Assembly (NCBI GenBank): GCA_965262865.1
Contig: CBDHFZ010000003.1
Coordinates: 214,566-278,565 of the forward strand
Source: Dehalococcoidia bacterium
GTDB taxonomy: Bacteria; Chloroflexota; Dehalococcoidia; Lucifugimonadales; UBA3495
Direction of reading: 5' to 3'
Length of the DNA stretch: 64,000 bases
Of this stretch, positions 4,254-56,621 are shown in pieces (position 1 is the stretch's first letter; the number at the start of each line of letters is the position of its first letter). The position numbers and the translations under genes are program-made. The notes below the pieces were generated by a model. The model was not told the origin of the DNA and searched no databases. It worked only from the letters and a program-made list of their open reading frames with translations.

Positions 4254-4256
4254 GCT

Positions 4257-11077: not shown

Positions 11078-11429
11078 TCCTTTTCGAGAGCTTTGTGCGC
11101 TGGTAATTACCAACCTCAGGCAGTCTAGCGATGTTCAGCCGCCAACGTACTGGCTGCCTGAGAAACGCCAACCGTCAGCGCGCCGACAGCGTCCTCGATG
11201 AACCTGTCCACCACCTACAGGACTCGCCGCCCTGAAACTCGCTTCCGACCATGGGAACTTCCCTATTCTTCCTGAAGCTCAATACAGCCGTATCCAAGGA
11301 TCACCAGCAGGGTCAATGACCAGAAGTCAGCACCCCTCATAATTGCTGACACTTGGCCGTTGATGAGGAGCGGAACGCCCCGATAGACTGGAGGCAGACG
11401 TCACTGAAAATAACCACGCCGGGAGTCGG

Positions 11430-34109: not shown

Positions 34110-34261
34110 CTAGTATTACAACGACGCATTGTCAGATGAGATAATCCTTGAGGCGGTTTTGAACACCAAAATGAATTCCGCCAAAGCTGAAACGAGCAGT
34201 TATTTGACCCTTGAGGAGATGGTAATCCGCACTTCTCCTCATACCGTCGTTGTAATACTAG
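34110..34261. repeat. 152-bp MITE-like element, copy A (17-bp TIRs CTAGTATTACAACGACG / CGTCGTTGTAATACTAG)
   Basis: TIRs read directly. A same-length element with near-identical TIRs lies at 40939-41091. Confidence 0.6.
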
Positions 34262-38969: not shown

Positions 38970-40477
38970 GCCGCTCTCCCCGACAGCAAGGTCATGTAGT
39001 CCCCGGCGGACGTGGCGCTCACCCGGACTCGTGGCAGGTAGGGATACAGCTCCAGGTCCAGCCGGGGCGGCCGCCCCTCCAGCCGGCACAGCACCAGGTG
39101 TTTCACGGCGTCGAAGCTGAGGGCCCCCAGCCGGAGGGCGTCCTTTGCCGCTACAGCCACCTCCTGCTGGGAGAAGGTCTCCAGCAGACGGAGCACCTGC
39201 ACGTATTCCCGCTTACCCCGCCGTCCCATGCGGGACTCCAGAAGCCGGCGCAGCGCGCCGAACTCCTCGGGTAGAGCCCAGCCCTGTAGCGGAGCGGCCT
39301 GATCCAAGGCTCCCGACTTACGCTCCAAGAGCGGCAGGTAGTGGATCGGGTCGTAGACAAAATCGTCCCGCTCATAGGAACGGATGTGTCTGGCGATGAC
39401 CTCGGACCCGCAGCCGATGACCACCTCATCAACGTAGCCCCGAACCAGCACGTCCCGGTATCCGTAGGCCACCGGCACCGAGTAGTCGTTGGTCCTGTAC
39501 CGGACCAAGGACAGCGAACTCACCCGGCCCGCCTGCTTCTCGCAGGCGTCGTAGGCTGCTGGCGGCAGGGGCAGCAGGGCGTCCAGGTCCCGCTCCATCC
39601 GTTGACCGATGGTCTCCATATGTCCCCTGAGCTTGCGGTCCGTTCGTTCCAGGCAACGCCGCTCCAGGTAGGCATTGAGCGCATCGAAGCTCTCGAAGGA
39701 CGGCACCGGAACCAGGAAGTTGCGGCGCACGTACCCCACCAGGCCCTCCACTTTGCCTTTGTCGTTGCCCTTGCCGGGACGCCCGAACCGGTCCTCGAAC
39801 AGGTAGTGGGACTGCAGCTCGGTGAAGGCGCGGGTGCGCTGGCGACGGCCGTCCCCCAGTATCTTCGCTACGGCCAGCCTGGTATTGTCGTAGAGGATGC
39901 TCTGGGGCACTCCGCCCAGGTAGGCGAAGGCGGAAACGTGCCCGTCCAGGAAGGCCTCGGTGGTCTCCGCCGGGTAGGCCTTCACGAAGCAGCCGTCGCT
40001 GTGGGGCAGGTCGATGACGAAGCAGTGGGCCTTGCGCTCCACGCCGCCGATGACCACCAGGGCCTCGCCGAAGTCGCACTGGGCGTGGCCCGGCGCATGG
40101 GACAGAGGGACGAACATCTCCTTGGTCTGACGGCGATTCTCTCTTACATAGTCCTTGACTGTGGTGTATCCACCGTCGAACCCGTACTCGTCCCTGAGCC
40201 GCTCGAAGATGCGCTTGGCCGTGTGGCGCTGCTTCCTGGGACGCCTGAGATCGTCCTCCAGGATCCGGTCGATGACGCCGGTGAAGGACTCCAACTTGGG
40301 CTTTCTAGGCGGAGACTGCCGACGATAACCCGGCGGGACCGAATAGGCCAGCATTTTGTGCACGGTGTCCCGGTGCAAGCCAAACGGCCGCGCCGTCTCC
40401 CGCATGCTCATCCCATCCACCATCACCGCCCTTCGGACCCGTAGATATACGTCCACGCTGTACATCCGTCGCACCAT
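38966..40477 (-). CDS. istA: IS21-family transposase IstA
   Basis: 503 aa with an N-terminal HTH (YLRVRRAVMVDGMSMRETARPFGLHRDTVHKML) and an rve/DDE core (CDFGEALVVIGGVERKAHCFVIDLPHSDGCFVKAYP...LYDNTRLAV). Confidence 0.9.
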   Translation of the reverse strand: MVRRMYSVDVYLRVRRAVMVDGMSMRETARPFGLHRDTVHKMLAYSVPPGYRRQSPPRKPKLESFTGVIDRILEDDLRRPRKQRHTAKRIFERLRDEYGFDGGYTTVKDYVRENRRQTKEMFVPLSHAPGHAQCDFGEALVVIGGVERKAHCFVIDLPHSDGCFVKAYPAETTEAFLDGHVSAFAYLGGVPQSILYDNTRLAVAKILGDGRRQRTRAFTELQSHYLFEDRFGRPGKGNDKGKVEGLVGYVRRNFLVPVPSFESFDALNAYLERRCLERTDRKLRGHMETIGQRMERDLDALLPLPPAAYDACEKQAGRVSSLSLVRYRTNDYSVPVAYGYRDVLVRGYVDEVVIGCGSEVIARHIRSYERDDFVYDPIHYLPLLERKSGALDQAAPLQGWALPEEFGALRRLLESRMGRRGKREYVQVLRLLETFSQQEVAVAAKDALRLGALSFDAVKHLVLCRLEGRPPRLDLELYPYLPRVRVSATSAGDYMTLLSGRAA

Positions 40478-40938
40478 CCATGGGGTCGGCTACAACCCTA
40501 TGAATGATGGCAGGCGGTACAGTATTTAGTCGCCGATACTCAGCAATCCTCCGCCCACGCGGCCCACTTTATCTCCGCCGTTTACACTCACGACCCTGGC
40601 CACTGCTTGGTTACGCACAGGTTGTCCCAACCAAGGTCAGTGTCCCGCATCGGCCGGCTTCACATCTTGTTCCAAGTCTCGGCCGAATGCCTGTCCCAAT
40701 AGAAACCAAGTGGTGGGCTTACGACTGTCACCCTTCCGCTGAATCATTCCTTGGGGCCAGGAACTTACCCAAGGGAACTGTGGAGACGAGGACGTGAAGT
40801 TATGAATTAAGTCTGCTTAGGTCGAAAACAGTCGGCCTACACGTACTGAATTGCGAACTTTCGGTGGGAGGTCCCGATATGAGGAGTCTGGCTTGGTGCG
40901 ACTACGCCAGCTACGACGGTTACTGAAAAGCACGCTCC

Positions 40939-41091
40939 CTAGAATTACAACGACGGATTGTTCGGCAAGGAGATTTTTGTAGTGAAATTCAACTTAGCGA
41001 CAAGCTGCCGAAAGCTTCCCACGGTAGGTGGCTTCGAATCAGGCAAGAAGCTTCAGCCGCATTCTTCTTCAAACTGTCGTTGTAATACTAA
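40939..41091. repeat. 153-bp MITE-like element, copy B (TIRs CTAGAATTACAACGACG / CTGTCGTTGTAATACTA)
   Basis: Same TIR family and length as 34110-34261, with a divergent interior. Its right arm supplies the last ~13 codons and the stop of gene 41053..42165. Confidence 0.6.
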
Positions 41092-42165
41092 CTGGCTGCA
41101 GCGGCTGCAGACTTTTCTTATCAGTTCATCTAAAACTCCATGGAGACGGAAATCCACCTCAATACTGACCACTGGCCCTTTGACCAATTCTTGAACTAGA
41201 GCGTCGAGTTGCGATAGCGCATTAGAATACATGGCACCCCGCGCACTAGTGAACTGACAGGATACCGCAGCCAGTGCCTGCCCAAGTTGAAGTGCCCTTT
41301 CTAGGCCAGCCTCCCGTGTGCCCCAGAACGATCTAGCTCCATACCTGCCTAGCGAGTGGATTATCCCAGACGTGCACCAATCGCCAGCGCCAGCTTCGTC
41401 GGCAATGTTATTTACTTTGAAGGCGGACATATATTTCCATGGTCCGATGCCTTTGTCACTCTGACGACGACGGTATCTAAGACCAGCTCGACCAATTGTC
41501 TGTACCTCAAGAGGAACCACAATATCCTTGAGTAACTCTGATGTATCTGAGAATCTTTCATGTGAATACTTCAAGACATGGCTAAGTTTCGTGGCCTCAA
41601 TGAACAGCTTTATCTCTCCGACTCCAGAAGGCTCGAAAACTATTAGTGCACCTTGCTTTCGATACGTTCTAGCAAGCTGCAGGGTACCTCGGGACGTGCG
41701 ATCGAAGTAAAAGACTTCAGGGCGACTAAGCTCTGCCAGTACCTGTTTAGTCATTTCTCCAGAAATGGCTCTATACCTAAGCAGATAATTCCCACAATGT
41801 GGGCAATGAAGTCTATACGAGTGTCTGCGGTGTCCATTCTTGGAAATTCTGATTCCTTCGATTATTGAGGGAGTGCTCCCTAATGATTCCTGCCTGACAA
41901 ACCTAGTGTCGACTCCATACCCAGCTAAATCCGATAGTACGATTCCCGCTGCGCTGTCTTGTCCTAGTCTGGCAACCGGATAAGAATTCCAACCGAGGTA
42001 TGCAAGTATGGCCATGACGTTGCCGCAAGACCCGCCAGCTCTGACAATGTATTGGTCTGGAACATCTGCTTCGACAACGATATCCAAGGTCACCAAGCCA
42101 GAGCCAATGCACGCCGCCTGCCGCTGCAGGGGAGTTATGAACTTACTACCGGACATATGGCTCAC
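41053..42165 (-). CDS. PfkB/ribokinase-family kinase with an inserted CxxC/His-rich segment
   Basis: AGGSCGNVMAILAYLG (PfkB motif 1-like GG...N...LG) and NIADEAGAGDWCTSGIIH (DxxGAGD motif 2). Insert is HRRHSYRLHCPHCGNYL. The start overlaps the upstream gene. Confidence 0.75.
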   Translation of the reverse strand: MSHMSGSKFITPLQRQAACIGSGLVTLDIVVEADVPDQYIVRAGGSCGNVMAILAYLGWNSYPVARLGQDSAAGIVLSDLAGYGVDTRFVRQESLGSTPSIIEGIRISKNGHRRHSYRLHCPHCGNYLLRYRAISGEMTKQVLAELSRPEVFYFDRTSRGTLQLARTYRKQGALIVFEPSGVGEIKLFIEATKLSHVLKYSHERFSDTSELLKDIVVPLEVQTIGRAGLRYRRRQSDKGIGPWKYMSAFKVNNIADEAGAGDWCTSGIIHSLGRYGARSFWGTREAGLERALQLGQALAAVSCQFTSARGAMYSNALSQLDALVQELVKGPVVSIEVDFRLHGVLDELIRKVCSRCSQLVLQRQFEEECG

Positions 42166-43282
42166 CAGCTACCCAGACTTCAAATAGGTCGTCAGAAACT
42201 GTCTCGGGGGTGTTAGCGGCGATCTCATATCCTTCTGACTCTACATGAGCTATACCTACGCTATACCCTATTCGCTTTAATTCGTAAGCAGCCAACAGTC
42301 CACCAAGAGACAGGAGTTTGCTAGACAGCGTCGATATCACCACTTTGCATCCACCCAGCGGCGCAAGCGCATCGGCATAATGCCTGACCGCGGAGACAAT
42401 CTCTCGATAGACGCCGAAGGGGTTCTGTTCAGGGACATACATGAAATTGGCCGGCTCTACGCGAAGTCGGTCAAACAGGTATGATCTATACTCAAGAAGC
42501 AAGTCATCTGTCCGTCTTGGATTTGCGCAAGGGAACGGGAACACAGGTACAATTTCATCCGGCGTAACAAGGTCGTATATACGCTCGAAGTGGGGGGTCT
42601 TACCTTCTCCTAATATTGGCATCCACACCTTAGGAACGTCTGCGGTGGATTCTTGCTCAATACCACTCTCGAACCCATGCAAGTATGTAGCATCATCACT
42701 AAGGCCTTTATCTGTGATTGCTCGGTCAAGTAGAGGGTCATTGCTTGTCAATACGTGCAGGTTTACGTTACTAGTTTCGGCCATCATATCAATCAAATAA
42801 AGTAGCTTCGCAAGCATAGGCATGTATATGGATCGAGGTAAAGCGTTGATGTCCAATAGAATGTCTGTGAATTCTGCAATGTCGTTGATAGATTCAAAGA
42901 CCTCTGCAGCACGGCGGGACCCAACACGTCGTCTACCGTCGGCGGACAACATATCTATCCGTCGTTTCACAATCTGACCGGGTCTATTAAAGAGAGCACC
43001 TAAAGTATCCGCATTGGAAGCGGCCAGATCATCATGCACTCTAGAAGGCGACGTGGATCCCTCGTCGTACTCTACTACCAGGCAGCGTCTGATTCCTTCC
43101 CCTTCAAGACCCATGATGGCCTTTGCAGCTGCGAACATGCGGGGATCAAACCCTGAACCGACTACGAACAACAGGTCTCGCTTTCGTGAGTGTATGAGAG
43201 AATTCCAGAATGGGACAAACTCGGAGCTCCCCCTGAGTGTGTATCCTAGCCAGCGGTCTGGTCTACCCAATTCCGCATTCAA
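42146..43282 (-). CDS. Hypothetical protein, no family recognised (378 aa)
   Basis: Open frame with TTG start overlapping the upstream stop (TTGA). It has Rossmann-like beginnings (RDLLFVVGSGFDPRMFAAAKAI) and GCKVVISTLSSKLLSLGGLLAAYEL near the C-terminus. I cannot assign it. Confidence 0.6.
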   Translation of the reverse strand: MNAELGRPDRWLGYTLRGSSEFVPFWNSLIHSRKRDLLFVVGSGFDPRMFAAAKAIMGLEGEGIRRCLVVEYDEGSTSPSRVHDDLAASNADTLGALFNRPGQIVKRRIDMLSADGRRRVGSRRAAEVFESINDIAEFTDILLDINALPRSIYMPMLAKLLYLIDMMAETSNVNLHVLTSNDPLLDRAITDKGLSDDATYLHGFESGIEQESTADVPKVWMPILGEGKTPHFERIYDLVTPDEIVPVFPFPCANPRRTDDLLLEYRSYLFDRLRVEPANFMYVPEQNPFGVYREIVSAVRHYADALAPLGGCKVVISTLSSKLLSLGGLLAAYELKRIGYSVGIAHVESEGYEIAANTPETVSDDLFEVWVAGEPYVR

Positions 43283-45207
43283 AGCAGTCGTTCTCCGTCA
43301 CTCGCATATTCGCTGCCCGTCTCCAGTGCCCAAAGCGCCAATTCATTAGGCCTTCTTGCGCGCCATCCACCGTACTGCAAAGGAAGATCAAAGTAACAGC
43401 AAAGAAACCGATTCAGATAGAGAACCATGCGTCTGTTATATCCCTGGGAATGGTCCAATACCGCCTCCAACAGATTCTGAGCAAGGCAAATTCCAATGAC
43501 TCTCGAAAGTGTTCTGAGATCAGGTCGGTTGGCAAGATACTTGTCGTCTCGCAGTTGGTTTCTTTCTGCCATAGTAATCGAAACGCCAGTTACTCCTGGT
43601 GCATACGGCGCGTTAGGTTGATAAGTTTCTCGTTTCGCAAACCGGCCGACCGCTTCTACGAACCGACGCACTTCAGTTTGCAACGGTACGCCTCTTAACA
43701 CATCCTCGCCCCACCACTGTCTAGCTGCTCTCTTTAAAATCGCGTGTTGCCTTTCGACCGTCAAAGAGGACGGCTTTCCTAATAAGGATGCTGAGCTGGC
43801 TTCTTCAAAAAGTTCTCCGGCGATGGCGAGAAACAATTCTATGTTCCAAGATGCTAACGATGCCAACTTCCCAACTCCAAAATAGTAAGGAATTTGGAAG
43901 CGACTCGCCAGGAAGAGTTCAGCAGCAGCCTTTACGGCTGAGTTATCCTTTTTCCTCAGGTCGTCACGTGACAAAGGGAGATCGAATGAAAGTTGACGAT
44001 TTCGATTTTCCCTAGCAATAAGAATGTCTAGGGCCTGCCAGGCGACCCCGCGCTCATAAGTCGTACCTTCTCTAGATTCCGCTTCAGCAAGCCAATATTG
44101 GAATCTATCTTTCTCACTCCAGCTGGCTTTCACTTCTTCTCTGGTCTTGGCACTTGCCTCCTCCAACGTGGCCGTCATTTCTGGAGTCTCAAGAGTGTTC
44201 GGCACACAACTTCCGAATGAGTCAATTCCATCCTGTTGGGCTTCACGTACTCTCTTGTCGGCGATGGCCAAAACAGTCCGCTGAAAGCGCATTGGATGGT
44301 CGCGCCAATATTTTTCTAACGTGACTGCGTTTTCACTGTAGTCCCTGTCGCGCCTTGCGCCGATATCCAGCAACTCATCGGATCGCAGAGCCTCGAGCCG
44401 TTCAGCAAGCCATACGGCTGGTCCATCCCTGATTTCATTCAAGGCCTTCCCAAGGCTTAAGCGCTGTGAGGGTGCAAGTTTGTGTACGTCGTCCAACATT
44501 ACCAATAGCCTCGAGGCGACTGGGACATCGTCCACCAACACATGCGCAGGCTTTAGCAGTCTGAGACTTGACAAATCGGAGTGCCCGACTGAATCGAGGG
44601 GCTGAGGATCAAGGCTATCCAGGGTTCTCGAAATCGCGGTCTCTATGCCACTTGCCCATTCAAACAGCCCACGTCCATCGCTACGATGCGGTACACCCAA
44701 TCCACGACATACGTCCACGTCCCCTCTTATTGTGAGCCTGTGAAGGTTGGCTGGGTATTCAAGACTCCGGAGTTGCAGAGCAGCCCGCATGGTGGACAAC
44801 ACAATTCGACAATTCAGAAATGCAAAAAAGAGCCGCTCTCTGTAGCGGTCATCCCAAGGCAAGTCATCCAGAGTGGCGTAGTTCTTCCCGCATGAAAGCA
44901 TGATCCCGAGCAATTGTGGACCGTTTTCATCTACGGCGCCGATATCTTTCATCTGTGCATATAATTCTCTATACTCCTCCTGTCTTGCATTTGCGTAAAG
45001 ATTAATCATGCTGGCCGGCGTAAAAGCCCGCATGATGGAGGTCTTGCCGCCTCCCGGGGCACTTCGTATTATAAACAGCCGCGAAAATGGCTCTTTCTCG
45101 GGTATCAATTCAAGCACACCTGGACCAAACAAACGCAGGAACGTTGTGTCCGACGCTATATGCTCAGACGCCCGCATGCGAAAGGGGTTGCGCGGATCAC
45201 GCATCAT
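43279..45207 (-). CDS. STAND/AAA-like P-loop NTPase with large helical C-terminal region (642 aa)
   Basis: Walker A FIIRSAPGGGKTSIMRAF and Walker B RLLVMLDDVHKL. An N-terminal NPF...F segment precedes the P-loop. SD GGGAGG lies just upstream. ATGATG overlaps the upstream stop. Confidence 0.75.
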   Translation of the reverse strand: MMRDPRNPFRMRASEHIASDTTFLRLFGPGVLELIPEKEPFSRLFIIRSAPGGGKTSIMRAFTPASMINLYANARQEEYRELYAQMKDIGAVDENGPQLLGIMLSCGKNYATLDDLPWDDRYRERLFFAFLNCRIVLSTMRAALQLRSLEYPANLHRLTIRGDVDVCRGLGVPHRSDGRGLFEWASGIETAISRTLDSLDPQPLDSVGHSDLSSLRLLKPAHVLVDDVPVASRLLVMLDDVHKLAPSQRLSLGKALNEIRDGPAVWLAERLEALRSDELLDIGARRDRDYSENAVTLEKYWRDHPMRFQRTVLAIADKRVREAQQDGIDSFGSCVPNTLETPEMTATLEEASAKTREEVKASWSEKDRFQYWLAEAESREGTTYERGVAWQALDILIARENRNRQLSFDLPLSRDDLRKKDNSAVKAAAELFLASRFQIPYYFGVGKLASLASWNIELFLAIAGELFEEASSASLLGKPSSLTVERQHAILKRAARQWWGEDVLRGVPLQTEVRRFVEAVGRFAKRETYQPNAPYAPGVTGVSITMAERNQLRDDKYLANRPDLRTLSRVIGICLAQNLLEAVLDHSQGYNRRMVLYLNRFLCCYFDLPLQYGGWRARRPNELALWALETGSEYASDGERLL

Positions 45208-46283
45208 TCCTCCCTATGGCGACTCACTCTTGGGAATAAGGCTTTGGTTTTGAGCCCGGTCTTATCCGCCCACAGCAGATAGACGGAATTGTTGGGTGTG
45301 TTGTGCGTTAGAACGAGAGGAAGCGAACCCGCCCCATATCCGTGGATGACGTCGGGCCCACCTTTCAACAGGTGCCTGTCCATGATGGAATTGTCATAGT
45401 ATTTGTAGAGAAGCGCATCAAACTCGGGTGCGTTTTCCGCCGTAACCAAGGTGTCACCGCCCAAGACATGAACAGGCAACAGTGAACATTTGGGCCAGTC
45501 ACCTCGCCAACGGTTCGCAAGTCGCTGATTCAATGCTTCCATCGCCCTAGATGTGCACATGTAAAGCACGACGTAAACTGAAAGGGAACCCACATCCAGT
45601 AATTCTGTACGCTCGTTCCTTTCCAACAACGTCGACAGGCACCGTACCGTCTTACCCTTTAATTCGCCGTCCTCCTCTCGCAGTAAAGAATCACCACTCC
45701 CTGAAAAGTCGTCTATCAGGAATAGATTCTCGAACCTTGCCTTTGGCGAACCCAGCTCATCTCTCAACTCTTTCACCATGTCCAATGCCTTCTCATCAGA
45801 CAGCTGGTAAGTTGCATGCACCTGCTCGTTGCTCAATTCGGCCTTTCGCCGTAGTACATCCACTCTTGCTCCATCGCTCAAGCCCAAGAACAGCGACTTC
45901 CGCTCCAGTTTCTTGAATTGATCGGACCCAAGTAGCTTGGCGACCGCATATTCGGGCACATCGGTATCTGCTGCCGCCTTCTGGAGCAAGATATGACGAA
46001 TGTAGTCAGGATACGTAAGTCCCACCAGATGTCGCATCTCCGCTTCAGAGACAAACAGTATTTTATTGGTTACAAAGTCGTAAGCTATTGGCCGCTCCGC
46101 CTCGTCAAAATTACTTAGCCAGATGGCCAGGCTCTCGATAAAGTGCATTCCAGGAGAAAACTGTTCATATTCGTCATACTTGTAGCTTGCGAGGGCTTGT
46201 AGTATGGGCCTCTCTCTGGCCACATCGGCAGGAGACCAATGCATAACTTCGGCGAGGAGCCGTTCCGCGAGGCCCTCCCTCAC
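45204..46283 (-). CDS. Phosphoribosyltransferase (PRTase)-like protein
   Basis: ENLFLIDDFSGSGDSL resembles the PRPP-binding loop (hydrophobic strand-DD-xxx-SG-x-S/T). The N-terminal ~170 aa are unassigned. GTG start overlaps the upstream stop (GTGA). Confidence 0.6.
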   Translation of the reverse strand: MREGLAERLLAEVMHWSPADVARERPILQALASYKYDEYEQFSPGMHFIESLAIWLSNFDEAERPIAYDFVTNKILFVSEAEMRHLVGLTYPDYIRHILLQKAAADTDVPEYAVAKLLGSDQFKKLERKSLFLGLSDGARVDVLRRKAELSNEQVHATYQLSDEKALDMVKELRDELGSPKARFENLFLIDDFSGSGDSLLREEDGELKGKTVRCLSTLLERNERTELLDVGSLSVYVVLYMCTSRAMEALNQRLANRWRGDWPKCSLLPVHVLGGDTLVTAENAPEFDALLYKYYDNSIMDRHLLKGGPDVIHGYGAGSLPLVLTHNTPNNSVYLLWADKTGLKTKALFPRVSRHREE

Positions 46284-48235
46284 AGAATTTCTCCAACTAG
46301 GGAACTCGTGTCGATGCGGAATTCTCCACCCTCGAAGCGCATTGCCTGAATGTAGTCAAGGGTTGCGCTGGGACCGCGGTGCCCAGATGATGCGAGATTC
46401 CAAGCCCATAGGGTGTTCTTTGGGCAATCAGCAACACTCAGGCTGTAGGGGTTGGAGAGTAGCGCGAAATCATTCCCTGTGCGATCGCCTTTGTCACCAA
46501 TCCGAAGGACCTGACCATCTAACCGGTCACGTCGAACCACTTCAAGACATGCCTCAACCACAGAATGTTTAGAGACATCAGCTCTCAAGATATCAATCGC
46601 ATGCGATGAGCGCATCACTGAGACGTCAGGGATGTCGGCGTCCGTCACGATTTCGGAAACGAGCTCTTGAACCAATTCGAGTGGCACGTGAGCCTCTGGC
46701 ATCAACGTAAGTTGCTCCACCCTCACCTCGAAGCTGGCAAGAGACGGAAGCAGCGGATGATTTTGAATCAAGGCAACAAGATCTTCTAGTTGTCGGGAAG
46801 TATCTCCTGCTTGTGCAGGTGGTCCTGCATCGAGCCGACGAACTTGAGCTCCGTTGTAGTATCCGACAATAATCTTGTGATGCAGGGCGACGTCCAGGCT
46901 TTCCCGAAGAGCCACTCCAACAGAGCGACCTCGGCCACTCGCAATGCCAAGTGCTATCCCACGGCTCACTATGTCAGAAAGTGCGTTGGCAATAGACTGA
47001 GGTAGTGGGCCAAACCGATCCTCAATGGGACAAAGGGTTTCGTCGTAGTCAAAGACTATTCCCTGGTATTTGGTAGCACCTAGAGTTTCCAAATAGCTAT
47101 GGAGGTTCAACTTTACGGCAGCAATAGCAGGGGGTGAGAAGGATCTGGGATCACTCCCTAGCTTGCGGCTCAACAAAGTGTCCGCATCAGGCTTGCGACT
47201 TGGTCCTTCAGGGGCCTTCACACGCATGTGATAAAGTTTCCGGCCGTACGCAGGCACCATTGGACGCCCGGGATCTACATCCTCAAGTGAAGCTATCTGC
47301 CCAATCAGAGTCATGCCGTTTGTCACAAGCTCTATCGCGGCTAGCGGTCCTTCATGTTCAGCTTCGACGCGAATGACCTCCACCTCAGGTGGAAGGAGTC
47401 TTAGGGTATCGTCAAAAAGCTTGGCCCAACGAGGCGTAACGAGGGCAACTATTGTGGTGGACGGACCACGCCTGGACAGCCAGTGGTGTCTTCCATGGGC
47501 AAAGTTCCTTAAGTCAGAATGATGCACATCGGCTAGACCCGATTCGACGAGCTTTGATTCTATGTCATTGGCCGCGACCTTACCCCAACCGGCATAGAGG
47601 ATTGAATATGTTGTCCGGTGCGAAGTGACCTGCAACGTTGAAGGCATAGATAAAGCCGGCAACAAGCTGGGCAATTCAGGAGCATTACCTGAATAGGCAC
47701 GGTAAAGAAGAACCATGGAAGCCAAGAGAGAATTGGTGGCCAAGAAGCCGTCCTTAGCGACCGGCGGAGCGAAGTTAACGATTTCGCTCATTCCGTAATT
47801 TCCCGGTCGCCTGATAAGGCTGGACTCTTTGGCAAAGGTTAGGACAACTACTCTCTTTGGCTCGCCGCGGGTTGCCCAATCAAATGCCTGGGCAATGTCC
47901 GGGTTGGCACCTCGTGCGGTAACAAGGCCTAGAGCGTAAGGTCTGACGGTGGAGCCAGCTAGCAACTCAAGTGGAGTTCCGTACTTTGAAGGGCTCCCCG
48001 TCGAAAATTCATGGAGCATCGCCCAGTAGGACGCAGCAGTTAATGAGCCACCCGATCCAATGGAGAATAAGGGGTATTGCCTTATTGCCTCAATCGCATT
48101 CGCAAACTCATCAATAGGGCAATTAGTTGCCCAATCATATGTCAGGGCCAGTTCTTCTAACTCTTTGGCGTATCGCCTGCCCACTATCCTTGCCCTCCAT
48201 TCACGGGGGTTCCCAAGCTGAATTGTGCCCGTCAC
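46280..48235 (-). CDS. SIS (sugar-phosphate isomerase/binding) domain(s) fused to a HAD-superfamily phosphatase domain (651 aa)
   Basis: N-terminal half is FSIGSGGSLTAASYWAMLHE (SIS GxGxS loop), with a second SIS-like repeat (ILYAGWGKVAANDIESKL). C-terminal half is GIVFDYDETLC (DxDxT), GIASGRGRS and RIGDKGDRTGNDFALL (GDxxxxND), the HAD motifs I-IV. Confidence 0.75.
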   Translation of the reverse strand: MTGTIQLGNPREWRARIVGRRYAKELEELALTYDWATNCPIDEFANAIEAIRQYPLFSIGSGGSLTAASYWAMLHEFSTGSPSKYGTPLELLAGSTVRPYALGLVTARGANPDIAQAFDWATRGEPKRVVVLTFAKESSLIRRPGNYGMSEIVNFAPPVAKDGFLATNSLLASMVLLYRAYSGNAPELPSLLPALSMPSTLQVTSHRTTYSILYAGWGKVAANDIESKLVESGLADVHHSDLRNFAHGRHHWLSRRGPSTTIVALVTPRWAKLFDDTLRLLPPEVEVIRVEAEHEGPLAAIELVTNGMTLIGQIASLEDVDPGRPMVPAYGRKLYHMRVKAPEGPSRKPDADTLLSRKLGSDPRSFSPPAIAAVKLNLHSYLETLGATKYQGIVFDYDETLCPIEDRFGPLPQSIANALSDIVSRGIALGIASGRGRSVGVALRESLDVALHHKIIVGYYNGAQVRRLDAGPPAQAGDTSRQLEDLVALIQNHPLLPSLASFEVRVEQLTLMPEAHVPLELVQELVSEIVTDADIPDVSVMRSSHAIDILRADVSKHSVVEACLEVVRRDRLDGQVLRIGDKGDRTGNDFALLSNPYSLSVADCPKNTLWAWNLASSGHRGPSATLDYIQAMRFEGGEFRIDTSSLVGEIL

Positions 48236-48277
48236 GCACCCGTGAATCGCACGACTTCCATAGAGGTGAAATATATT

Positions 48278-48499
48278 TCAACGAAGAAGCTTTTCCCTTA
48301 TCTCGACTATCGCAAGACGCTCTACAACTTGTAAACGTCTTATCTCATCCAGCCGTTCTAGTGCCCCTTTCTCTTCGAATAGGTGATACCCCCCTGCTGT
48401 GTAATCGGTGGGCGACAAAAGACCCTCCTTGACATAGAATCTCACCTTTGAAGGTAGTATGTCGGCCAACTTCGCGAGTTGCCCTGTTTTGATCAACAT
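48278..48499 (-). CDS. MerR-family transcriptional regulator (short, 73 aa)
   Basis: MLIKTGQLAKLADILPSKVRFYVKEGLLSPTDYTAGGYHLFEE is a MerR-type HTH plus wing. It is the first gene of the minus-strand cluster. Confidence 0.75.
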   Translation of the reverse strand: MLIKTGQLAKLADILPSKVRFYVKEGLLSPTDYTAGGYHLFEEKGALERLDEIRRLQVVERLAIVEIREKLLR

Positions 48500-48536
48500 C
48501 TATTCGCCCTGAATTGAGGAACAGGAAGTTCAACCG

Positions 48537-48551
48537 TAAAGTGGCACTTTA
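48537..48551. promoter_or_regulatory. Perfect 15-bp palindrome TAAAGTG-G-CACTTTA upstream of the MerR gene (candidate operator)
   Basis: Read directly, 38-52 nt upstream of start codon 48499. A second palindrome, TGAAATATATTTCA (48267-48280), overlaps the merR stop before the next gene. Confidence 0.4.
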
Positions 48552-48794
48552 TGCTTTCCGCTCAAAGAGTGTCAAGGCTGTCAGCGACGTTAGGAAACTC
48601 CATAGGTAGATACGGACCACCCGCGGGCTGCGTGAGTTGCCCTGCCGCTAACCTAAACGGTGCAGTTTCTTGTAGCGTAGCGCTCGCACCACGGGCACAG
48701 AATTCTCCGTCAACACGTCTTGCCTGAATGACCTGACCCCCGAAAGCCGATCCAGGATCAATGTTAGGATTCCGGACAAAACGGGGGTTGAGAC

Positions 48795-49073
48795 ATGGCC
48801 AGAAGGAAGCACACAGCCGAGGGAATCATCAACAAGCTTAGAGAGGTGGAGGTGGTCATCGCCGCGGGAAGTACTGTTGTAGAGGCCGCCCGGCGCCTCG
48901 GTGTCTCGAAGCAGACCTTCTACCGCAGGAGGGCCGAGTACGGTGGTCTCCGGGTCGATCAGGCTCGGCGCCTGAAGCAACTGGAAATCGAGAACAGCCG
49001 GCTGAAGCGGGCAGTGGCCGAACTGGCCCTGGACAACCAGGTACTCAAAGAGGCAGATGAGGGGAACTTCTGA
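48795..49073 (+). CDS. IS3-family transposase OrfA (HTH/leucine zipper)
   Basis: MARRKHTAEGIINKLREVEVVIAAGSTVVEAARRLGVSKQTFYRRRAEYGGLRVDQARRLKQLEIENSRLKRAVAEL. Confidence 0.85.
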   Translation: MARRKHTAEGIINKLREVEVVIAAGSTVVEAARRLGVSKQTFYRRRAEYGGLRVDQARRLKQLEIENSRLKRAVAELALDNQVLKEADEGNF

Positions 49074-50123
49074 GCCCCGCCCGCCGGCGCCGCTGCATCC
49101 AGCATGTGACGGAGACCTTCGGAGTCTCAGACCAGAGGGCATGCAGGGTGCTGGGTCAGTCCCGCTCGACCCATCGCCATGAGCCGCTGGTCCGGGATGA
49201 CGAGCAGGCACTCACCAACGACATCGTTGGGCTGTCCACCCGGTTCGGCCGGTACGGTTACCGGCGGATCACGGCGATGCTCCGGCGTAGCGGTTGGGTG
49301 GTAAACCACAAACGGGTGGCCGGATATGGCGGCGGGAGGAGATCAAGGTACCGGCCAGGCAGCCCAGGAGAGGCCGGCTGTGGCTGAACGACGGGTCGTG
49401 CGTCAGGCTGAGGCCCGAGAGGAAAAACCATGTGTGGGCCTATGACTTCGTCCACATCAGGACTTGGGACGGCCGGGCGGTACGACTTGCTGACTGTCAT
49501 AGACGAGTACACCAGGGAGTGCCTGGCTATTCGGGCAGGGCGCAGCATCCGGTCCCCGGATGTAATTGAGACCCTCGCAGAGCTGATGACAGCCAGGGGG
49601 AGTGCCAGAGCACATCCGCTCGGACAACGGGCCGGAACTCACTGCCAAGGCTGTCCGTGAGTGGCTCGGGAAGGTGGGAGCAAAGACTCTGTACATCGAG
49701 CCTGGGTCGCCGTGGGAGAACGGATACGTGGAGAGCTTCAACGGTAAGCTTAGCTGGACTTTACGCATTTTAAGCGGCATAAGCGAGGGAATCTGCAATA
49801 CGATGGTACAGAGTGGCGGGGAGTTTCTGTACATCGGAGTTGGCGGTCGATAGTGAAAAACCCTCCGACACCAACCACCAGTGGCTACGCACTAAGGTGA
49901 TGTCATCCATTACTTTTCCTGGATTTTGCGTAAAGTCGAGCTTAGGGACGAGTTGCTGGACCGGGAAGCCTTCTATACGCTGCTGCAGGTGCGGGTGCTG
50001 ACCGAGCAGTACCGGCAGACTTACAACCGGATCAGGCCCCATAGCCCCCTGGGCTACAGGCCACCGGCACCGGAAACATTCCTGCCCGAGAACCTTGTCC
50101 CAGTGCTGGTCGGACTAACATAG
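49070..50123 (+). pseudogene. IS3-family transposase OrfB (rve DDE), multiple frameshifts plus MITE insertion
   Basis: The pieces are YGYRRITAMLRRSGWVVNHKRV / WAYDFVHIRTWDGRAVRL / LTVIDEYTRECLAI / PEHIRSDNGPELTAKAV...YIEPGSPWENGYVESFNGKL // RDELLDREAFYTLLQVRVLTEQYRQTYNRIRPHSPLGYRPPAPE. Confidence 0.8.
49752..49945. repeat. ~190-bp MITE, copy 1 (TIR AGCTGGACTTTACGCA / TGCGTAAAGTCGAGCT), inserted in IS3 orfB at a TA
   Basis: It separates codons ...FNGKL and RDELL of orfB. The inverted copy at 54740-54928 is near-identical by eye. Confidence 0.7.
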
Positions 50124-50437: not shown

Positions 50438-51754
50438 ATGGCTTGCTCTCACTCGAGCCGACCACCTGCCGCATCTCGATGGGTGGCCCACAAGCGGTGG
50501 TCCGATAATTGGGTAAGTATTCAAGAGTATTCGGGAGGTGGACAGGGCGAAGTCAAGCTGGTCCATCGAAAGCGCGACGGCCAGGAGGGGTTCCTAAAGG
50601 CTATCAGGCAGAAGAACGATCCGGAACGGCGGGGACGCTTCTTCAGAGAGGCCAGCGCGTACGACACGCTGAAGTCATCGGGCATTCCGCGCTTAGTCGA
50701 AAGTAATGCACATTTGCATGACGACAGTGAAGCCTTCCCATACATCGTGACCGAGTTTATCGAAGGACCGACCTTGCACCAGTGGCGCCAGGCACAATCG
50801 CTTGTCGAACTTGGCATTGCAATCAGGACGACACGAGAACTGCTCGTAATCCTAACTATGTGCCACGCCTCGGGTTTCGTGCATCGGGATGTTAAGCCAG
50901 ACAACGTCGTTCTTGCTGACGGCGACCCTGGTCGACCAGTCCTGCTCGACTTCGGTCTCAACTTCCACAAGGCCGCGAAAAACGACCTCGAAACCGAGCA
51001 GGGACAGGAGATCGGCAACCGTTTCCTGCGTCTACCGGAACTCTCGGCGGGCAGTTCCCTCAAACAAGATCCAAGGTCAGACATCTCGTTTGCTGCCGGT
51101 ATTCTCTATTTTCTGCTGACCAGCCAACATCCGAACGTCCTACAAGATGCCGAGGGTCGCCTACCCCACCAACGTATTGAAGTGCTTGCAATGCTGGAAT
51201 GTGTCGCTGGCTCCAGTCTTCACCGACTATTGGCATTGTTCGATAGAGCGTTCGCTCCGCAAATTGCAGATCGGTTCTTGAATGCTAATGCAATGCTGGC
51301 AGAACTCGAGAGGGTGATGGAACCGCCTACAGGAGCCCATTCGGAGGCCGTTTTGCAGGACATCATCGAGGCGCTGGGAACGGAATCGGCGCGTCGACAG
51401 GCGGCGACAGCAGCGCGTCTAAGTGAGGGTCTTAAACAAATCCAACGCGTGCACCGTGAAGTACTTTCGAATCTTGAGGCGAGTGGAGTTCCCCTGGGTT
51501 GGTCGCAGTCCAGTTGGAGCGTCGTCGAAGGGTCGGGACGCAACACGCTTGGTTTTGTAAGGCCGGGGTCTGCTGATAGGATTCTGTCGGTGGTTTGCGA
51601 GGCACGAGAGGCTGGCGACGAGATCGTGATCCACCTGTCCGGAGAGCCAGTGTATCGAACATTGGTCGCTTCTCCGAACTATAGCGATCAGTTTGACGCT
51701 ACGATTCGGAGCTGGCTACTCGGTCGGCTTCACGAGGCAATCACGATAACCTAA
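50438..51754 (+). CDS. Hanks-type Ser/Thr protein kinase with uncharacterised C-terminal domain
   Basis: GGGQGEVKLV (Gly loop), GFLKAI (VAIK-like Lys), HRDVKPDNVVL (catalytic loop) and LLDFGLN (DFG). About 170 aa of unassigned helical C-terminus. AT-richer than the backbone. Confidence 0.8.
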   Translation: MACSHSSRPPAASRWVAHKRWSDNWVSIQEYSGGGQGEVKLVHRKRDGQEGFLKAIRQKNDPERRGRFFREASAYDTLKSSGIPRLVESNAHLHDDSEAFPYIVTEFIEGPTLHQWRQAQSLVELGIAIRTTRELLVILTMCHASGFVHRDVKPDNVVLADGDPGRPVLLDFGLNFHKAAKNDLETEQGQEIGNRFLRLPELSAGSSLKQDPRSDISFAAGILYFLLTSQHPNVLQDAEGRLPHQRIEVLAMLECVAGSSLHRLLALFDRAFAPQIADRFLNANAMLAELERVMEPPTGAHSEAVLQDIIEALGTESARRQAATAARLSEGLKQIQRVHREVLSNLEASGVPLGWSQSSWSVVEGSGRNTLGFVRPGSADRILSVVCEAREAGDEIVIHLSGEPVYRTLVASPNYSDQFDATIRSWLLGRLHEAITIT

Positions 51755-51994: not shown

Positions 51995-53901
51995 CTAGAA
52001 ATCTGGCCGGAAAGTGGTTTGAGTCGCCGAGCATTTATAATTGGGGTCAACAAGCGTAGCGAGGGTTGAGAATGCTGGGAGAGCGTTCGGACCAGAGGGG
52101 TCTTTGGGAAGCGGACCGGTTGTACCTGGACCATGTGGGGAAGGACACCTTCTACGGTCTGCTGGCTTCCCTGCGGGGCCGGCTGTTCCAGGACTCCGAT
52201 TTCGCGGTGTTCTACTGCGCTGACAACGGCCGGGACAGCGTGCCGCCCAGCCTGCTGGCCACGGCGCTGCTGTTGCAGACCCACGACAAGGTCAGCGACG
52301 CCGAGGCCAAGGCCCGGGCCGACTTCGACATCCGCTGGAAGGTGGCTCTGGGGATTGAGGTGGAGGACAGGCCCTTCGCCAAGAGCACGCTCCAGGTGTT
52401 CCGGGCCCAGCTGATCCTGCACGACAGGGTGCGGGAGGTATTCGAGTCCAGCCTGCGCCTCGCCCGGGAGTCGGGCTACCTGAAGAGGCGCAGCATGAAG
52501 GTGGCTCTGGACACGACCAACATCCTGGGCCGGGGCGCGGTGAGGGACACCTACAATCTGCTGGCCGACGGGATCGTCAAGCTGATGCGGGCGCTGGCGC
52601 AGGTTGAGGGAATCAGCGTCGGGAAATGGGCCAAGGCCCGGGGATACGGGCGGTACCTCGCCTCCAGCATCAAGGGAGAGGCGACCATCGACTGGTCGGA
52701 CAAGCGGGCGCGGACGGCACTGCTGGCGGGGATTGTGGGAGACGCGGACCGGCTCTTGGAATTATCGCGGCTGGCCCAGGGGGAGTTGCCCGAGGACGGT
52801 GCTGAGCGTCAGCAGATAGTGGCGGCGGCGGAACTGCTGGGGCAGTTGCTGCTCCAGGACATTGAGCGCAAGGGTGGCGACGGCGACGGCGATGACGGCG
52901 TGAGCCTCAAGGACGGGGTGAGCAAGGACCGGATGATGTCGGTGCACGACCCTGAGATGCGCCACGGGCACAAGAGCAGCAGGAGACGCTTCGACGGACA
53001 CAAGGCGGCGATTGTGGTTGACACCGACACCCAGCTGATCACCGCCGTGGAGGTACTGCCGGGCAACGCTCCGGACAACCTGGGGGCGCTGGAACTGGTA
53101 GAACAGAGCGAGGCCAACACCGGTGTGCCGGTGCAGGAGGCCATGGGCGACGCCGCCTATGGAGACGGAGCTACCAGGCAGACCTTCGCCGACGCGGGCC
53201 GCACCCTGATTGCCCGGGTGCCGGGACGGCCCGACCGGCAGCGCTTTCCCAAGAATGACTTTGTCATCGACCTGGTGGCGGGCAGTTGCACCTGTCCGGC
53301 AGGGCAGGTCACCCACACCATAGTGCCAGCGGGACGGCGTACGGATGCCGCGGGTCGGATACACCACTTGCAGGCCTTCCAGTTCGACGGGTCCGAATGT
53401 ATGACATGTCCCCTGCGGTCTCAGTGCATCTCGGCCAAGGGCAGGAAGGGACGGCGGGTGCTGATCCATCCCCAGGAGGCTCTCCTGCAACAGGCCCGTG
53501 CGTTGCAACAGAGCGCCGGGTATGACGAATATCGAGCGCGACGCGTGGTGGTCGAGCACAGATTGGCCCGACTGGTCCAGTTGGGCATTCGCCAGTCCCG
53601 CTACTTCGGACGCGCCAAGACGCGATTCCAGCTGTACCTGGCGGCTACAGTGGCCAACCTGACCCTGGTGGCGGGCAAAATCGAGCTGTCGGACAGTGTC
53701 GGCGGTGGGCTTCCGCGCCACCACGCCGTCCTCAGTGCCGTCCCCAGTGATGTCCAGGCTGTTTCCCACGGTGTGGTCGCCCATGCTACGGCCATTTTCG
53801 GCGCTGTCCGGCTCGGACTGCTGTGGTCCCAGATTCTGTTCGCCTCGGCTTTACTGCCGAAATCTCTCTCCCCATCCAGGGCTTTTCGGCCCGGCTTCTA
53901 G
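51995..53901 (+). mobile_element. IS1182-like (IS5-superfamily) element, apparently intact
   Basis: TIRs CTAGAAATCTGGCCGGAAAG (51995-) and CTTTTCGGCCCGGCTTCTAG (-53901). A single 611-aa transposase ORF has its stop inside the right TIR. Confidence 0.8.
52066..53901 (+). CDS. IS1182-like DDE transposase
   Basis: N-terminal DUF772-like region (DSVPPSLLATALLLQTHDKVSDAEAKARADFDIRWKVALGI...FAKSTLQVFR), a DDE region (DTTNILG...AYGDG...VEHRLARL) and a Cys cluster CTCPAGQ...CMTCPLRSQC. Confidence 0.85.
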   Translation: MRMLGERSDQRGLWEADRLYLDHVGKDTFYGLLASLRGRLFQDSDFAVFYCADNGRDSVPPSLLATALLLQTHDKVSDAEAKARADFDIRWKVALGIEVEDRPFAKSTLQVFRAQLILHDRVREVFESSLRLARESGYLKRRSMKVALDTTNILGRGAVRDTYNLLADGIVKLMRALAQVEGISVGKWAKARGYGRYLASSIKGEATIDWSDKRARTALLAGIVGDADRLLELSRLAQGELPEDGAERQQIVAAAELLGQLLLQDIERKGGDGDGDDGVSLKDGVSKDRMMSVHDPEMRHGHKSSRRRFDGHKAAIVVDTDTQLITAVEVLPGNAPDNLGALELVEQSEANTGVPVQEAMGDAAYGDGATRQTFADAGRTLIARVPGRPDRQRFPKNDFVIDLVAGSCTCPAGQVTHTIVPAGRRTDAAGRIHHLQAFQFDGSECMTCPLRSQCISAKGRKGRRVLIHPQEALLQQARALQQSAGYDEYRARRVVVEHRLARLVQLGIRQSRYFGRAKTRFQLYLAATVANLTLVAGKIELSDSVGGGLPRHHAVLSAVPSDVQAVSHGVVAHATAIFGAVRLGLLWSQILFASALLPKSLSPSRAFRPGF

Positions 53902-54679: not shown

Positions 54680-54739
54680 TTCAGAACCTCGCCCAGAGGA
54701 CATGAAGAGATGTCCGCCGGTATGCTCTTCACATCCTAT

Positions 54740-54928
54740 GCTCGACTTTACGCAAAATCCAGGAAAAGTAATGGATGACATCACCTTTGTGCGTAGCCAC
54801 TGGTGGTTGGTGTCGGAGGGTTTTTCACTATCGACCGCCAACTCCGATGTACAGGAACTCCCCGCCACTCTGTACCATCGTATTGCAGATTCCCTCGCTT
54901 ATGCCGCTTAAAATGCGTAAAGTCCAGC
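54740..54928. repeat. ~190-bp MITE, copy 2 (inverted relative to 49752-49945)
   Basis: GCTCGACTTTACGCAAAATCCAGGAAAAGTAATGGATGACATCACC...TGCGTAAAGTCCAGC. The ORF track shows the shared pseudo-peptide CTSELAVDSEKPSDTNHQWLRTKVMSSITFPGFCVKSS in both copies. Confidence 0.7.
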
Positions 54929-55023
54929 TTGTAACCCTTAAACCGTAACCGATGCCCATTATTGCCCAGGCAGCGCGTCGCCGGCCAGATCCGGCCATGC
55001 CCCAGTGGGCCGGTTATCCTTCC

Positions 55024-56135: not shown

Positions 56136-56621
56136 CTTCTTCAAGGACTGTCCCCTAGGCCGTCCTTCGGTGGATTCGAGCTTGGGGAGAATCGGGGTTC
56201 CCGGCCATATTTCTAGGCCCTAGCCAACACCCTGGGCTGGTTCAAGCCCGGAGAACAGTCCAACAAAATTAACGCAGATCCTCGGTTGCTGCACCTGACG
56301 GAGCTAAATGGGCGCATCGCCATCGCCGACTCCAGCAACAGTTTCCCACGACCTGTTTAAGCAATAGATCAGGCGGGAAGTGCGTGTACAGGAGCAATGT
56401 CTCAAGCGGGCCGGAGGGAAGGGGATATGCTGGGGTTACTCTGCAGTAAATATGCGTTGCCGGACTTTCCGGCGAAATGGCTAAAATCGGCTGAGGGGCG
56501 CCTTCGCATAAATTATCGCCACTGTGCTAACTTGATTGTACGTTAATACGTAAATACGGATGTTCACCAGGACGGGGCGTCACGTAGACGTGTAGTCGTG
56601 GTGCCGGATAATGGAGGCGCA

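Follow-up and report, generated by a model that had tools for sequence, protein, structure and literature searches.

Which task would bring together a phosphosugar isomerase fused to a phosphatase, a phosphoribosyltransferase (PRTase), a P-loop ATPase, a tandem-Rossmann protein and a sugar kinase? This question is raised by a block of genes at positions 41053-48551 of a 64,000-nucleotide stretch of the genome of a Dehalococcoidia bacterium (GenBank assembly GCA_965262865.1, contig CBDHFZ010000003.1, positions 214,566 to 278,565), hereafter called the window. An initial annotation, made from the sequence alone, had described there an AT-rich operon of six genes, starting with a MerR-type regulator, and had proposed an undescribed conflict or defence system. 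We found that five of the six genes form a unit conserved across bacteria and archaea, and we tentatively favour the view that this unit, a mobile cassette, acts against phages.

A five-gene unit conserved across bacteria and archaea

Six co-directional genes occupy the minus strand, and their open reading frames (ORFs) were found at exactly the coordinates given by the initial annotation:

48278-48499, minus strand: MerR-type helix-turn-helix (HTH) protein, 73 aa
46280-48235, minus strand: double-SIS and HAD-IIB fusion protein (SIS-HAD), 651 aa
45204-46283, minus strand: PRTase-CE protein, 359 aa
43279-45207, minus strand: ORC-CDC6-like P-loop ATPase, 642 aa
42146-43282, minus strand: tandem-Rossmann CARF6 protein, 378 aa
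41053-42165, minus strand: PfkB-family kinase, 370 aa

The last five genes are chained by overlapping starts and stops, and all four junctions read as they had been described. On the minus strand these are GTGA (46283-46280) between SIS-HAD and PRTase, ATGATG (45207-45202) with the PRTase stop TGA inside it between PRTase and ATPase, TTGA (43282-43279) between ATPase and CARF6, and, between CARF6 and the kinase, an overlap of 20 nt from GTG 42165 or of 11 nt from ATG 42156. The AT-richness of the six-gene block was also confirmed, its G+C content (0.509) being 10 points lower than that of the remaining window (0.612).

To survey the locus, one genome per species was scanned with a CARF6 alignment, which yielded 80 loci (numbered L below) covering more than 12 phyla, archaea included. 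The carriers belong to Dehalococcoidia, Armatimonadota, Acidobacteriota, Myxococcota, Planctomycetota, Verrucomicrobiota, Cyanobacteria, Bacteroidota, Nitrospirota, Bacillota and Chlorobiales, and, among the archaea, to Nitrosopumilus, Methanoregula and Methanosarcina. SIS-HAD, PRTase, ATPase, CARF6 and PfkB were all matched in 68 of the 80 loci, with the same order and strand in 67; eleven of the remaining 12 loci are cut by contig ends, and the last (L080) has a NADAR gene and no PfkB. Such recurrence of five genes in a fixed order is far more than would be expected by chance. The overlaps recur as well: 4-nt overlaps are kept at the first three junctions in 36/54, 44/59 and 45/61 loci, respectively, and the CARF6-PfkB overlap has a median of 11 nt across loci. 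Moreover, the five genes travel together, because the pairwise-identity matrices of their proteins correlate with each other (r = 0.84-0.92). All together, in bacteria and archaea alike, the five genes are co-inherited as one unit with coupled translation.

The six-gene unit of the initial annotation thus holds for five genes but not for the sixth. A gene for a MerR-type HTH protein is indeed present upstream, but it is found only in Dehalococcoidia relatives (L002, L003 and L006; L081 has an 85-aa ORF, which was not scanned, in the same place). In other lineages the small HTH genes upstream are HTH_11/DeoR-like, XRE or excisionase-like. The MerR gene is a lineage-specific regulator outside the conserved core.

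Within the cassette, the invariant core is PRTase>ATPase>CARF6. In the order variants (Desulfitobacterium L021, Paenarthrobacter pTC2 and one of the two tandem copies on Sinorhizobium meliloti pRRI128_5), SIS-HAD and PfkB have moved behind this intact trio. Homologous clusters without the NTPase had been named at the outset as evidence that would speak against a defence system; no locus without the ATPase was seen among those surveyed. On the S. meliloti RRI128 plasmid (L094, pRRI128_5, 1-10039), the first of the tandem cassettes reads PRTase (uncertain), ATPase, CARF6, SIS-HAD and PfkB; a divergent NADAR gene and an XRE regulator follow, and then a PRTase-ATPase-CARF6 trio to which no sugar enzymes belong.

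Five loci encode a NADAR N-glycosidase (Pfam 2.6e-26), with 65-81% identity between hosts. On Burkholderia gladioli bgla_2p, in a Chlorobiales metagenome-assembled genome (MAG) and on one viral contig, it lies ahead of SIS-HAD and substitutes for PfkB, whereas in the two other loci it stands alongside PfkB. This alternation of NADAR and PfkB is the strongest clue to an N-ribosyl compound at the centre of the system, one that would be open to direct search; it does not decide between the models weighed below.

No sixth conserved gene (regulator, transporter, cyclase or nuclease) was found when flanks were compared among the surveyed loci with a complete cassette. Some copies have decayed (L005, L015, L040 and L079, together with two deletion fusions, P0408 and P0421). 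In L006 the CARF6 ORF is disrupted (10001-11136), which may be a long-read indel error. Control by a riboswitch was considered and rejected, as no Rfam family reached the gathering threshold in the window, or for the cassette in seven diverse loci; group II intron matches in L014 are unrelated to the cassette. Family sizes obtained by a word-indexed search (313, 570 and 3081 matches) were not used, pre-selection of candidates making them uninterpretable.

Predicted activities of the cassette proteins

In alignments, the motifs of the cassette proteins are kept across about 60 orthologues, and by these motifs the enzymes are predicted to be catalytically intact. The initial annotation had noticed in the product of 45204-46283 a sequence resembling a loop for phosphoribosyl pyrophosphate (PRPP). 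This protein matches Pfam PRTase-CE (PF24390, 3e-17) and the PADLOC models of the retron PRTase_III-A (down to 4.7e-14, residues 50-352), and its PRPP loop LhhDD191-192FSGSG (sequence LFLIDDFSGSGDS; DD191-192 with S196, G197 and S199) is invariant; the Pfam match and the conserved loop together identify a type I PRTase fold. A second motif, G315-x14-P330N331N332, is invariant or nearly so in 25-60 orthologues. It corresponds to the retron-specific PRTase motif Gx14PNNxP (PMC12746101), at the final P of which the window protein has Val334, a position left unchecked in the orthologues. In an AlphaFold2 model (pLDDT 88), an all-helical N-domain (residues 1-128) is joined to a type I PRTase core. 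With this model, Foldseek retrieved uracil phosphoribosyltransferases weakly from the PDB (probability 0.8-0.97, E of at least 0.018) and a phage "PRTase-CE domain-containing protein" at 7e-5; a sequence search of solved structures gave no match.

Given these motifs, a place among the effectors of the retron-III-A/ShosT clade would suit the protein better than a biosynthetic role. Defence PRTases form a single clade, and in the Ophion system a PRTase is paired with a viperin-like radical SAM enzyme (bioRxiv 2025.09.30.679545). The catalytic site of the Retron-Eco11 PRTase is needed for defence, and its activation halves PRPP (PMC12746101). ShosT, a fusion of a HAD-like pyrophosphatase and a PRTase, binds PRPP, shows DD-dependent toxicity and disturbs purine metabolism (PMC11961720).

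Retron III-A systems share with the cassette a homologous PRTase (PADLOC 4.7e-14), the DD loop and Gx14PNN, but differ from it in several respects. They comprise a reverse transcriptase and an msr/msd non-coding RNA, whereas neither a conserved reverse transcriptase nor a conserved non-coding RNA was found in the surveyed loci, nor any Rfam match in the window. The retron PRTase has a C-terminal winged helix, which the cassette PRTase lacks, having a helical N-domain of its own; and its partners are unlike those of the cassette PRTase, namely an AAA+ ATPase, a CARF-like protein and sugar-phosphate enzymes. Coupling of a PRTase to a HAD-superfamily phosphohydrolase is common to ShosTA and the cassette. 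In ShosT, however, the HAD domain is fused to the PRTase, whereas that of the cassette is of the Cof-type IIB class, fused to a double-SIS module and encoded by a separate, coupled gene. Furthermore, the N-domain of the cassette PRTase is all-helical and not Rossmann, no DprA-like gene is conserved, and the PADLOC models for ShosT, ShosA and PsyrT miss the cassette.

The 378-aa protein, which the initial annotation could not place, can now be assigned to a tandem-Rossmann family labelled CARF6. The PADLOC model CARF6--CARF_CARF_CARF covers it from end to end (1.2e-108), and its AlphaFold2 model (pLDDT 86.5, pTM 0.88) consists of two tandem Rossmann-like halves filling all 378 aa. By Foldseek, the best E value was obtained for the C-terminal tandem domains of KCC/NKCC cotransporters (2e-7, whole length, low TM-score), followed by the CARF domains of Csm6 (8jbb), Crn1 (7ygh) and Csx1-Crn2 (8y75), with probability 1.0 over about 170 columns, E of about 1e-3 and TM-scores of 0.2-0.46. 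A sequence search of solved structures gave no match. An internal duplication was considered and rejected, hhalign finding no similarity between the halves. Among 1.84 billion representatives searched, the family comprises 840 clusters at 50% identity, nearly all of them stand-alone, and nearly all of the best 150 of the 840 measure 360-390 aa. No output domain (HEPN, nuclease, transmembrane or HTH) is fused to CARF6, unlike the arrangement in CARF effectors. Nor did fusions prove informative, since the two longer members that were read (P0408 and P0421) are in-frame deletion fusions with neighbours, CARF6-PfkB and ATPase-CARF6.

Judged by Foldseek, CARF6 may share a Rossmann-like CARF fold with the CARF sensors of type III CRISPR systems (Csm6, Csx1, Crn1 and Can1), of which Can1 likewise combines two CARF domains in a single chain (table in PMC9704534). 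It is unlike these sensors in having no fused effector domain and in the unrelated sequences of its halves, and its ligand need not be a cyclic oligoadenylate. No conserved Cas10, CD-NTase or CRISPR array, as would be expected of a type III CRISPR or CBASS system, was found near the cassette: neither Cas10 nor CD-NTase is among the top 25 families obtained when the flanks were surveyed with Pfam and PADLOC, and the window yielded no CRISPR-like repeat family.

The third member of the core had been described as a STAND-like NTPase with a large helical tail. A P-loop ATPase with a long helical C-terminal region was indeed found, but the label it received is ORC/Cdc6-like, not STAND. Its sole Pfam match is ORC-CDC6-like (PF24389, 1e-16, residues 52-611). 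Walker A (G52xG54K55) and Walker B (D239D240), about 180 residues apart, and an N-terminal RNPF6-9 are invariant. A sequence search of solved structures revealed no relative, and the 120 homologues listed are all unnamed or "hypothetical protein". The ATPases of BREX systems (BrxC, BrxD, DUF499) belong to the same broad Pfam AAA+ clade and are likewise large with a helical C-terminal region (bioRxiv 2025.10.09.681413); the PADLOC models for BrxC and BrxD nevertheless miss the cassette ATPase, and PglZ/PglX partners are absent from the cassette.

Of the proposed SIS-HAD fusion, the HAD motifs DxDxT and GDxxxxND were confirmed and are invariant in orthologues. Residues ~20-345 would form a double-SIS module resembling phosphosugar isomerases, deaminases and deglycases, and residues ~390-615 form a HAD-IIB (Cof-type) sugar-phosphate phosphatase. 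The SIS half gave no match with Pfam SIS, and it matched solved structures by profile search only, a single-sequence search giving nothing; its matches are remote and NagB-II/GlmS-isomerase-like (8eol, 3hba and 2aml, 1.5e-5, residues 25-245), with a weak one to 3eua (0.0076). Its conserved motifs are GSGGS60-64 and ESKLVE231...D241xRNFAH247GRH250, the latter aligned to a catalytic E...HGP motif; H247-G248 is conserved, but Asp241 occupies the position equivalent to GlmS E488. In the HAD half, D396xD398xT400, S438, K556, G580-D581 and G587-N588-D589 are invariant, in agreement with the HAD-IIB motif pattern. This half matches Pfam Hydrolase_3 (1.5e-5), NCBIfam HAD-SF-IIB (8.9e-6, below that model's own cutoff) and, by profile, the Cof-type phosphatases 2pq0 and 1ymq.

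For the PfkB kinase, Pfam (PfkB, 1.2e-12), a PDB profile search (best match fructokinase 5ey7, 1e-12) and conserved motifs bear out the original assignment. GG44-45xxGN49 and D256xxGAGD262W are present, with G44, G45, D256, G259, G261 and D262 invariant, as is characteristic of PfkB enzymes, and the protein is predicted to be fructokinase/ketohexokinase-like. C121, C124, C353 and C356 are mostly conserved and probably form a four-Cys zinc site. The pairing of PfkB with a double-SIS protein presumably resembles the FrlD/FrlB kinase-deglycase pair. With the frl, GlmS and NagB-II proteins, the cassette shares this pairing and an alignable E...HG motif region; it differs from them in several ways: the similarity is remote (E of about 1e-5), a HAD is joined to the SIS module, Asp241 stands at the GlmS E488 position and the context is not catabolic. 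The formal parallel to the ADP-heptose pathway drawn by the initial annotation finds no support, for the putative isomerase is of the double-SIS GlmS-isomerase/NagB-II/FrlB type and not GmhA-like, the HAD is of class IIB and not GmhB-type, there is no nucleotidyltransferase and the flanks are not envelope genes.

The MerR-type protein encoded upstream (Pfam MerR_1, 3.7e-9; PADLOC mad1, weak, 4.5e-5) is only 73 aa long and consists of an HTH and a short helix. It lacks an effector-binding domain and does not qualify as a MerR metal or drug sensor; the NCBIfam ZntR, CadR and CueR models cover its residues 3-70 only, far under their cutoffs.

Taken as a set, the cassette matches no whole system in PADLOC v2.0.0: when the models were run on its proteins, only CARF6, PRTase_III-A and, weakly, mad1 responded, and the ATPase, SIS-HAD and PfkB matched none. 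The structure and sequence searches likewise assigned the set to no known pathway. A full-text literature search, whose coverage did not extend to the 2020 CARF/SAVED census and the 2015 paper on nucleotide-centric systems, returned no description of, or experiment on, this gene set, and the cassette partners are not mentioned in the 2014 CARF/WYL paper. The claim of an undescribed system therefore survives as regards function, but three components are already modelled, PF24389 and PF24390 in Pfam and CARF6 in PADLOC. The consecutive Pfam numbers suggest that the two models were defined together, possibly from this operon.

Genomic context and possible function

The cassette is carried by about 20 plasmids of cultured bacteria, nine of which are conjugative (hosts: Agrobacterium, Rhizobium, Sinorhizobium and Burkholderia). 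On an Agrobacterium plasmid, Tn7-like genes and Shedu adjoin it; on a Sulfitobacter plasmid, it lies between relaxase/type IV coupling protein genes and virB genes. Five IMG/VR contigs also carry it. Even in close relatives the 7.4-kb block sits in different surroundings, since L006, another Dehalococcoidia MAG, shares with the window only 40939-48357 (96% identity), the homology ending inside the MerR gene.

In a flank survey, the 150 nearest-neighbour ORFs of about 40 loci were compared with Pfam and PADLOC. ResIII was encountered six times and BrxL, BrxHI/II and DrmD three times each; further neighbours are a type I methyltransferase, HsdR_N, Mrr, PglZ, PtuA, AbiEi, a type IIG restriction-modification protein, PD-T4-6, CHAT, integrases and transposases. 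In the window, the next intact gene past a degraded IS3 element, 1.9 kb from the cassette, encodes a full-length PD-T4-6 single-gene defence kinase (50438-51754, plus strand; PADLOC 1.4e-156, Pfam Pkinase 1.9e-18), and insertion sequences (IS) of the IS21, IS3 and IS630-like types surround the cassette. The cassette is thus placed in a defence- and IS-rich island, because PD-T4-6, a helicase fusion (see below) and these elements lie nearby. The initial annotation had singled out a core-genome position beside envelope or nucleotide-sugar genes as contrary to its proposal; the flanks are not envelope genes but are variable, mobile and often defence-rich.

Our preferred reading, which we hold provisionally, is that the cassette is a mobile conflict system, most likely anti-phage, in which a PRTase effector under ATPase/CARF6 control disturbs nucleotide-precursor metabolism. 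As to its kind, we infer that it belongs to the defences acting through nucleotide metabolism, with the PRTase as effector and a sensor of the CARF type. The role of infection sensor or switch would fall to the ATPase with its long helical tail, and CARF6 would bind a small molecule of the nucleotide- or ribosyl-phosphate type and gate the complex. The PRTase would then use up PRPP or move phosphoribose onto an unusual acceptor, so that phage replication would run short of nucleotides, an effect reported for Retron-Eco11 and ShosT. The HAD, the SIS isomerase/deglycase and PfkB (or NADAR) might drive the reaction on, or they might process or clear the phosphoribosyl product; the HAD would be the counterpart of the HAD-like pyrophosphatase domain that ShosT carries beside its PRTase. 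In the Dehalococcoidia lineage of the window, the minimal MerR-type HTH would control transcription.

Several points weigh against this reading. Defence is deduced from context, and for SIS-HAD, PfkB, CARF6 and the ATPase the roles given are guesses. The cassette encodes no classical effector such as a nuclease or a pore, and the structural matches of the PRTase are weak (E of at least 0.018 against the PDB). The CARF label comes from a PADLOC model probably built from the CARF6 family itself and from weak Foldseek matches (E of about 1e-3), the top structural matches being cotransporter C-terminal domains. The flank survey used crude longest-ORF calls without statistical control, and some chromosomal copies lie among housekeeping genes. 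Absence of the PRTase from all INPHARED phage genomes we count as neutral. From the initial proposal of a conflict or defence system, five-gene co-conservation and variable, mobile, defence-rich flanks have thus been established, but defence itself is something that we infer.

If the cassette is a defence system, it would be a widespread multi-gene module that current catalogues do not recognise as a unit. It would join PRTase effectors that starve phage of precursors, CARF-type sensors and ORC/Cdc6-like defence ATPases, themes so far studied apart, and show that sugar-phosphate enzymes have been recruited to immunity. The cultured, plasmid-borne copies make the question testable now.

The same genes could alternatively serve a second-messenger pathway, which we consider rather unlikely. 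The PRTase and the sugar-phosphate enzymes would make and recycle a new ribosyl- or ketosamine-phosphate signal once infection has been sensed by the ATPase, CARF6 would be its dedicated receptor, the ATPase or a host factor the effector, and NADAR, or PfkB with SIS, the off-switch. For cyclic oligoadenylates, this off-switch is provided by ring nucleases. A stand-alone CARF-like protein beside enzymes of N-ribosyl bonds would suit such a pathway, with no cyclase conserved in the 80-locus survey, and NADAR substitutes for PfkB as expected of alternative signal-clearing enzymes. PfkB and the double-SIS module would presumably act like FrlD and FrlB, consistent with the weak 3eua match (0.0076), and all enzymes appear catalytically intact by motif. 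The motifs of the PRTase, however, place it in the effector clade and not among known signal synthases, and no downstream effector domain can be recognised, CARF6 carrying no fused output domain. In a more specific form, to which we give equally little credence, the cassette would be a cyclase-independent immune pathway: the PRTase would write a second messenger of the phosphoribosyl or ketosamine type, the tandem CARF-like protein read it, and kinase, phosphatase, isomerase or NADAR erase it, with the ATPase coupling the pathway to infection sensing or execution. Such a pathway would provide the first CARF-family receptor for a non-oligonucleotide signal and the first signalling role of a PRTase.

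It is more doubtful still that the cassette performs chemical defence, making an antiviral or antimetabolite nucleoside or nucleotide analogue whose production is gated by the ATPase and CARF6, by a logic comparable to that of angustmycin/psicofuranine or of viperin products. The angustmycin/psicofuranine route proceeds through sugar-phosphate isomerisation, PRTase-type base coupling and dephosphorylation by a HAD. A ketohexokinase-like PfkB, a phosphosugar isomerase, a PRTase and a HAD formally fit routes of this type; yet a pyrophosphokinase that could supply the activated sugar donor is missing, the flanks hold no conserved gene for export or self-resistance, and NADAR in the place of PfkB fits a linear biosynthesis poorly. 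Pairing of a PRTase with a viperin-like enzyme, as in Ophion, also speaks for this possibility (bioRxiv 2025.09.30.679545).

Least probable, in our view, is an accessory metabolic or salvage operon outside defence, for example for catabolism or damage control of Amadori compounds, ribosylamines or unusual nucleosides, with CARF6 and the ATPase as regulators or chaperones and spreading on plasmids because it is useful: genes for a sugar kinase, a deglycase-like SIS and a phosphatase are typical of catabolism, the carriers include many rhizobial plasmids and some chromosomal copies lie among housekeeping genes, but no transporter or catabolic regulator is conserved, the carriers include Nitrosopumilus, Methanoregula and Dehalococcoidia, the PRTase carries a defence-clade motif, defence and mobile-element neighbours are frequent and decayed copies occur.

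Boundaries of the cassette and neighbouring elements

The features that delimit the cassette in the window, with a candidate control region, are as follows:

40939-41091, no strand: element resembling a miniature inverted-repeat transposable element (MITE), 3' boundary; 13-nt terminal inverted repeats and a strong long hairpin; a second copy in the window, and also present in L006
48267-48280, no strand: perfect 14-nt palindrome TGAAATATATTTCA (48280-48267), between the MerR stop and SIS-HAD start codons
48537-48575, minus strand: promoter-like site TTGACA-18-TAAAGT with a palindrome on its -10, from sequence reading and a consensus scan
48729-50123, plus strand: degraded IS3-family element (HTH_Tnp_1, HTH_21 and rve/rve_3 fragments), 5' boundary, outside the cassette

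On the 3' side, the terminal inverted repeats of the MITE-like element are ATTACAACGACGG / CTGTCGTTGTAAT (13 nt). The label is justified because a second element of about 150 bp, with 15-23-nt termini in common, lies at 34110-34261. The element, described at the outset as replacing the end of the kinase gene, covers the final 39 nt of the ORF (12 codons and the stop). The resulting tail of 12 residues lies past the conserved C353xxC356, the closest orthologues stopping 2-3 residues past this CxxC; therefore, the catalytic core is untouched. On the 5' side, the IS3 boundary was also recovered, though the element is degraded, with OrfA (HTH_Tnp_1) at 48795-49073 followed by broken rve pieces up to 50123. 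An IS21 element (IstB, and IstA with a Mu-transposase C-domain) lies on the other side of the cassette.

Both palindromes noted at the outset, before the MerR gene and before the next gene, are present. The first, TAAAGTGCCACTTTA (48551-48537), is perfect over 15 nt; it lies across the -10 of the TTGACA-18-TAAAGT site and is a candidate operator for the MerR-like protein. Promoter-like sites are no more numerous in the region than in shuffled sequences, and the site at 48537-48575 is plausible by its position only.

Integration next to tRNA genes was considered as a rule and rejected, tRNA or tmRNA genes being near the cassette in few loci only. Such genes were seen within 0.3-6 kb at L074 (18317-18713), L016 (12482-12558), L063 (4234-4310) and L069 (12795-12868), which is consistent with island integration sites in these genomes and is not general.

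Other features of the window concern its further neighbourhood. Upstream, at 12616-17784 (plus strand), a 1722-aa fusion joins a DpdF/PsyrT-like DEAD helicase (2.8e-111) to a GajB-like UvrD helicase and may be a further defence gene of unusual architecture. Inverted repeats at 20687-20918 and 40369-40586 (87-116 nt, 83-92% complementary) are separated by 19.5 kb; one arm coincides with the end of the cassette-adjacent IS21, so that another IS21-like end may lie near 20.7 kb. On the opposite side, inverted repeats of 195 nt (49752-49946 and 54735-54929, 98% complementary) flank 4.8 kb holding the PD-T4-6 and DDE transposase genes, with one arm within the broken IS3 OrfB; the segment between them is possibly a composite mobile unit. 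Two diverged direct copies (52042-53708 and 57792-59452; 71-88% identity) of an IS encoding a DDE_Tnp_1_6/DUF772 transposase are present, 5.75 kb apart. Finally, a 495-aa ORF at 60676-62163 (plus strand) matches the DnaA N-terminal domain in its C-terminal part (4.7e-11), and a ParA-like gene lies near it at 56598-57311.

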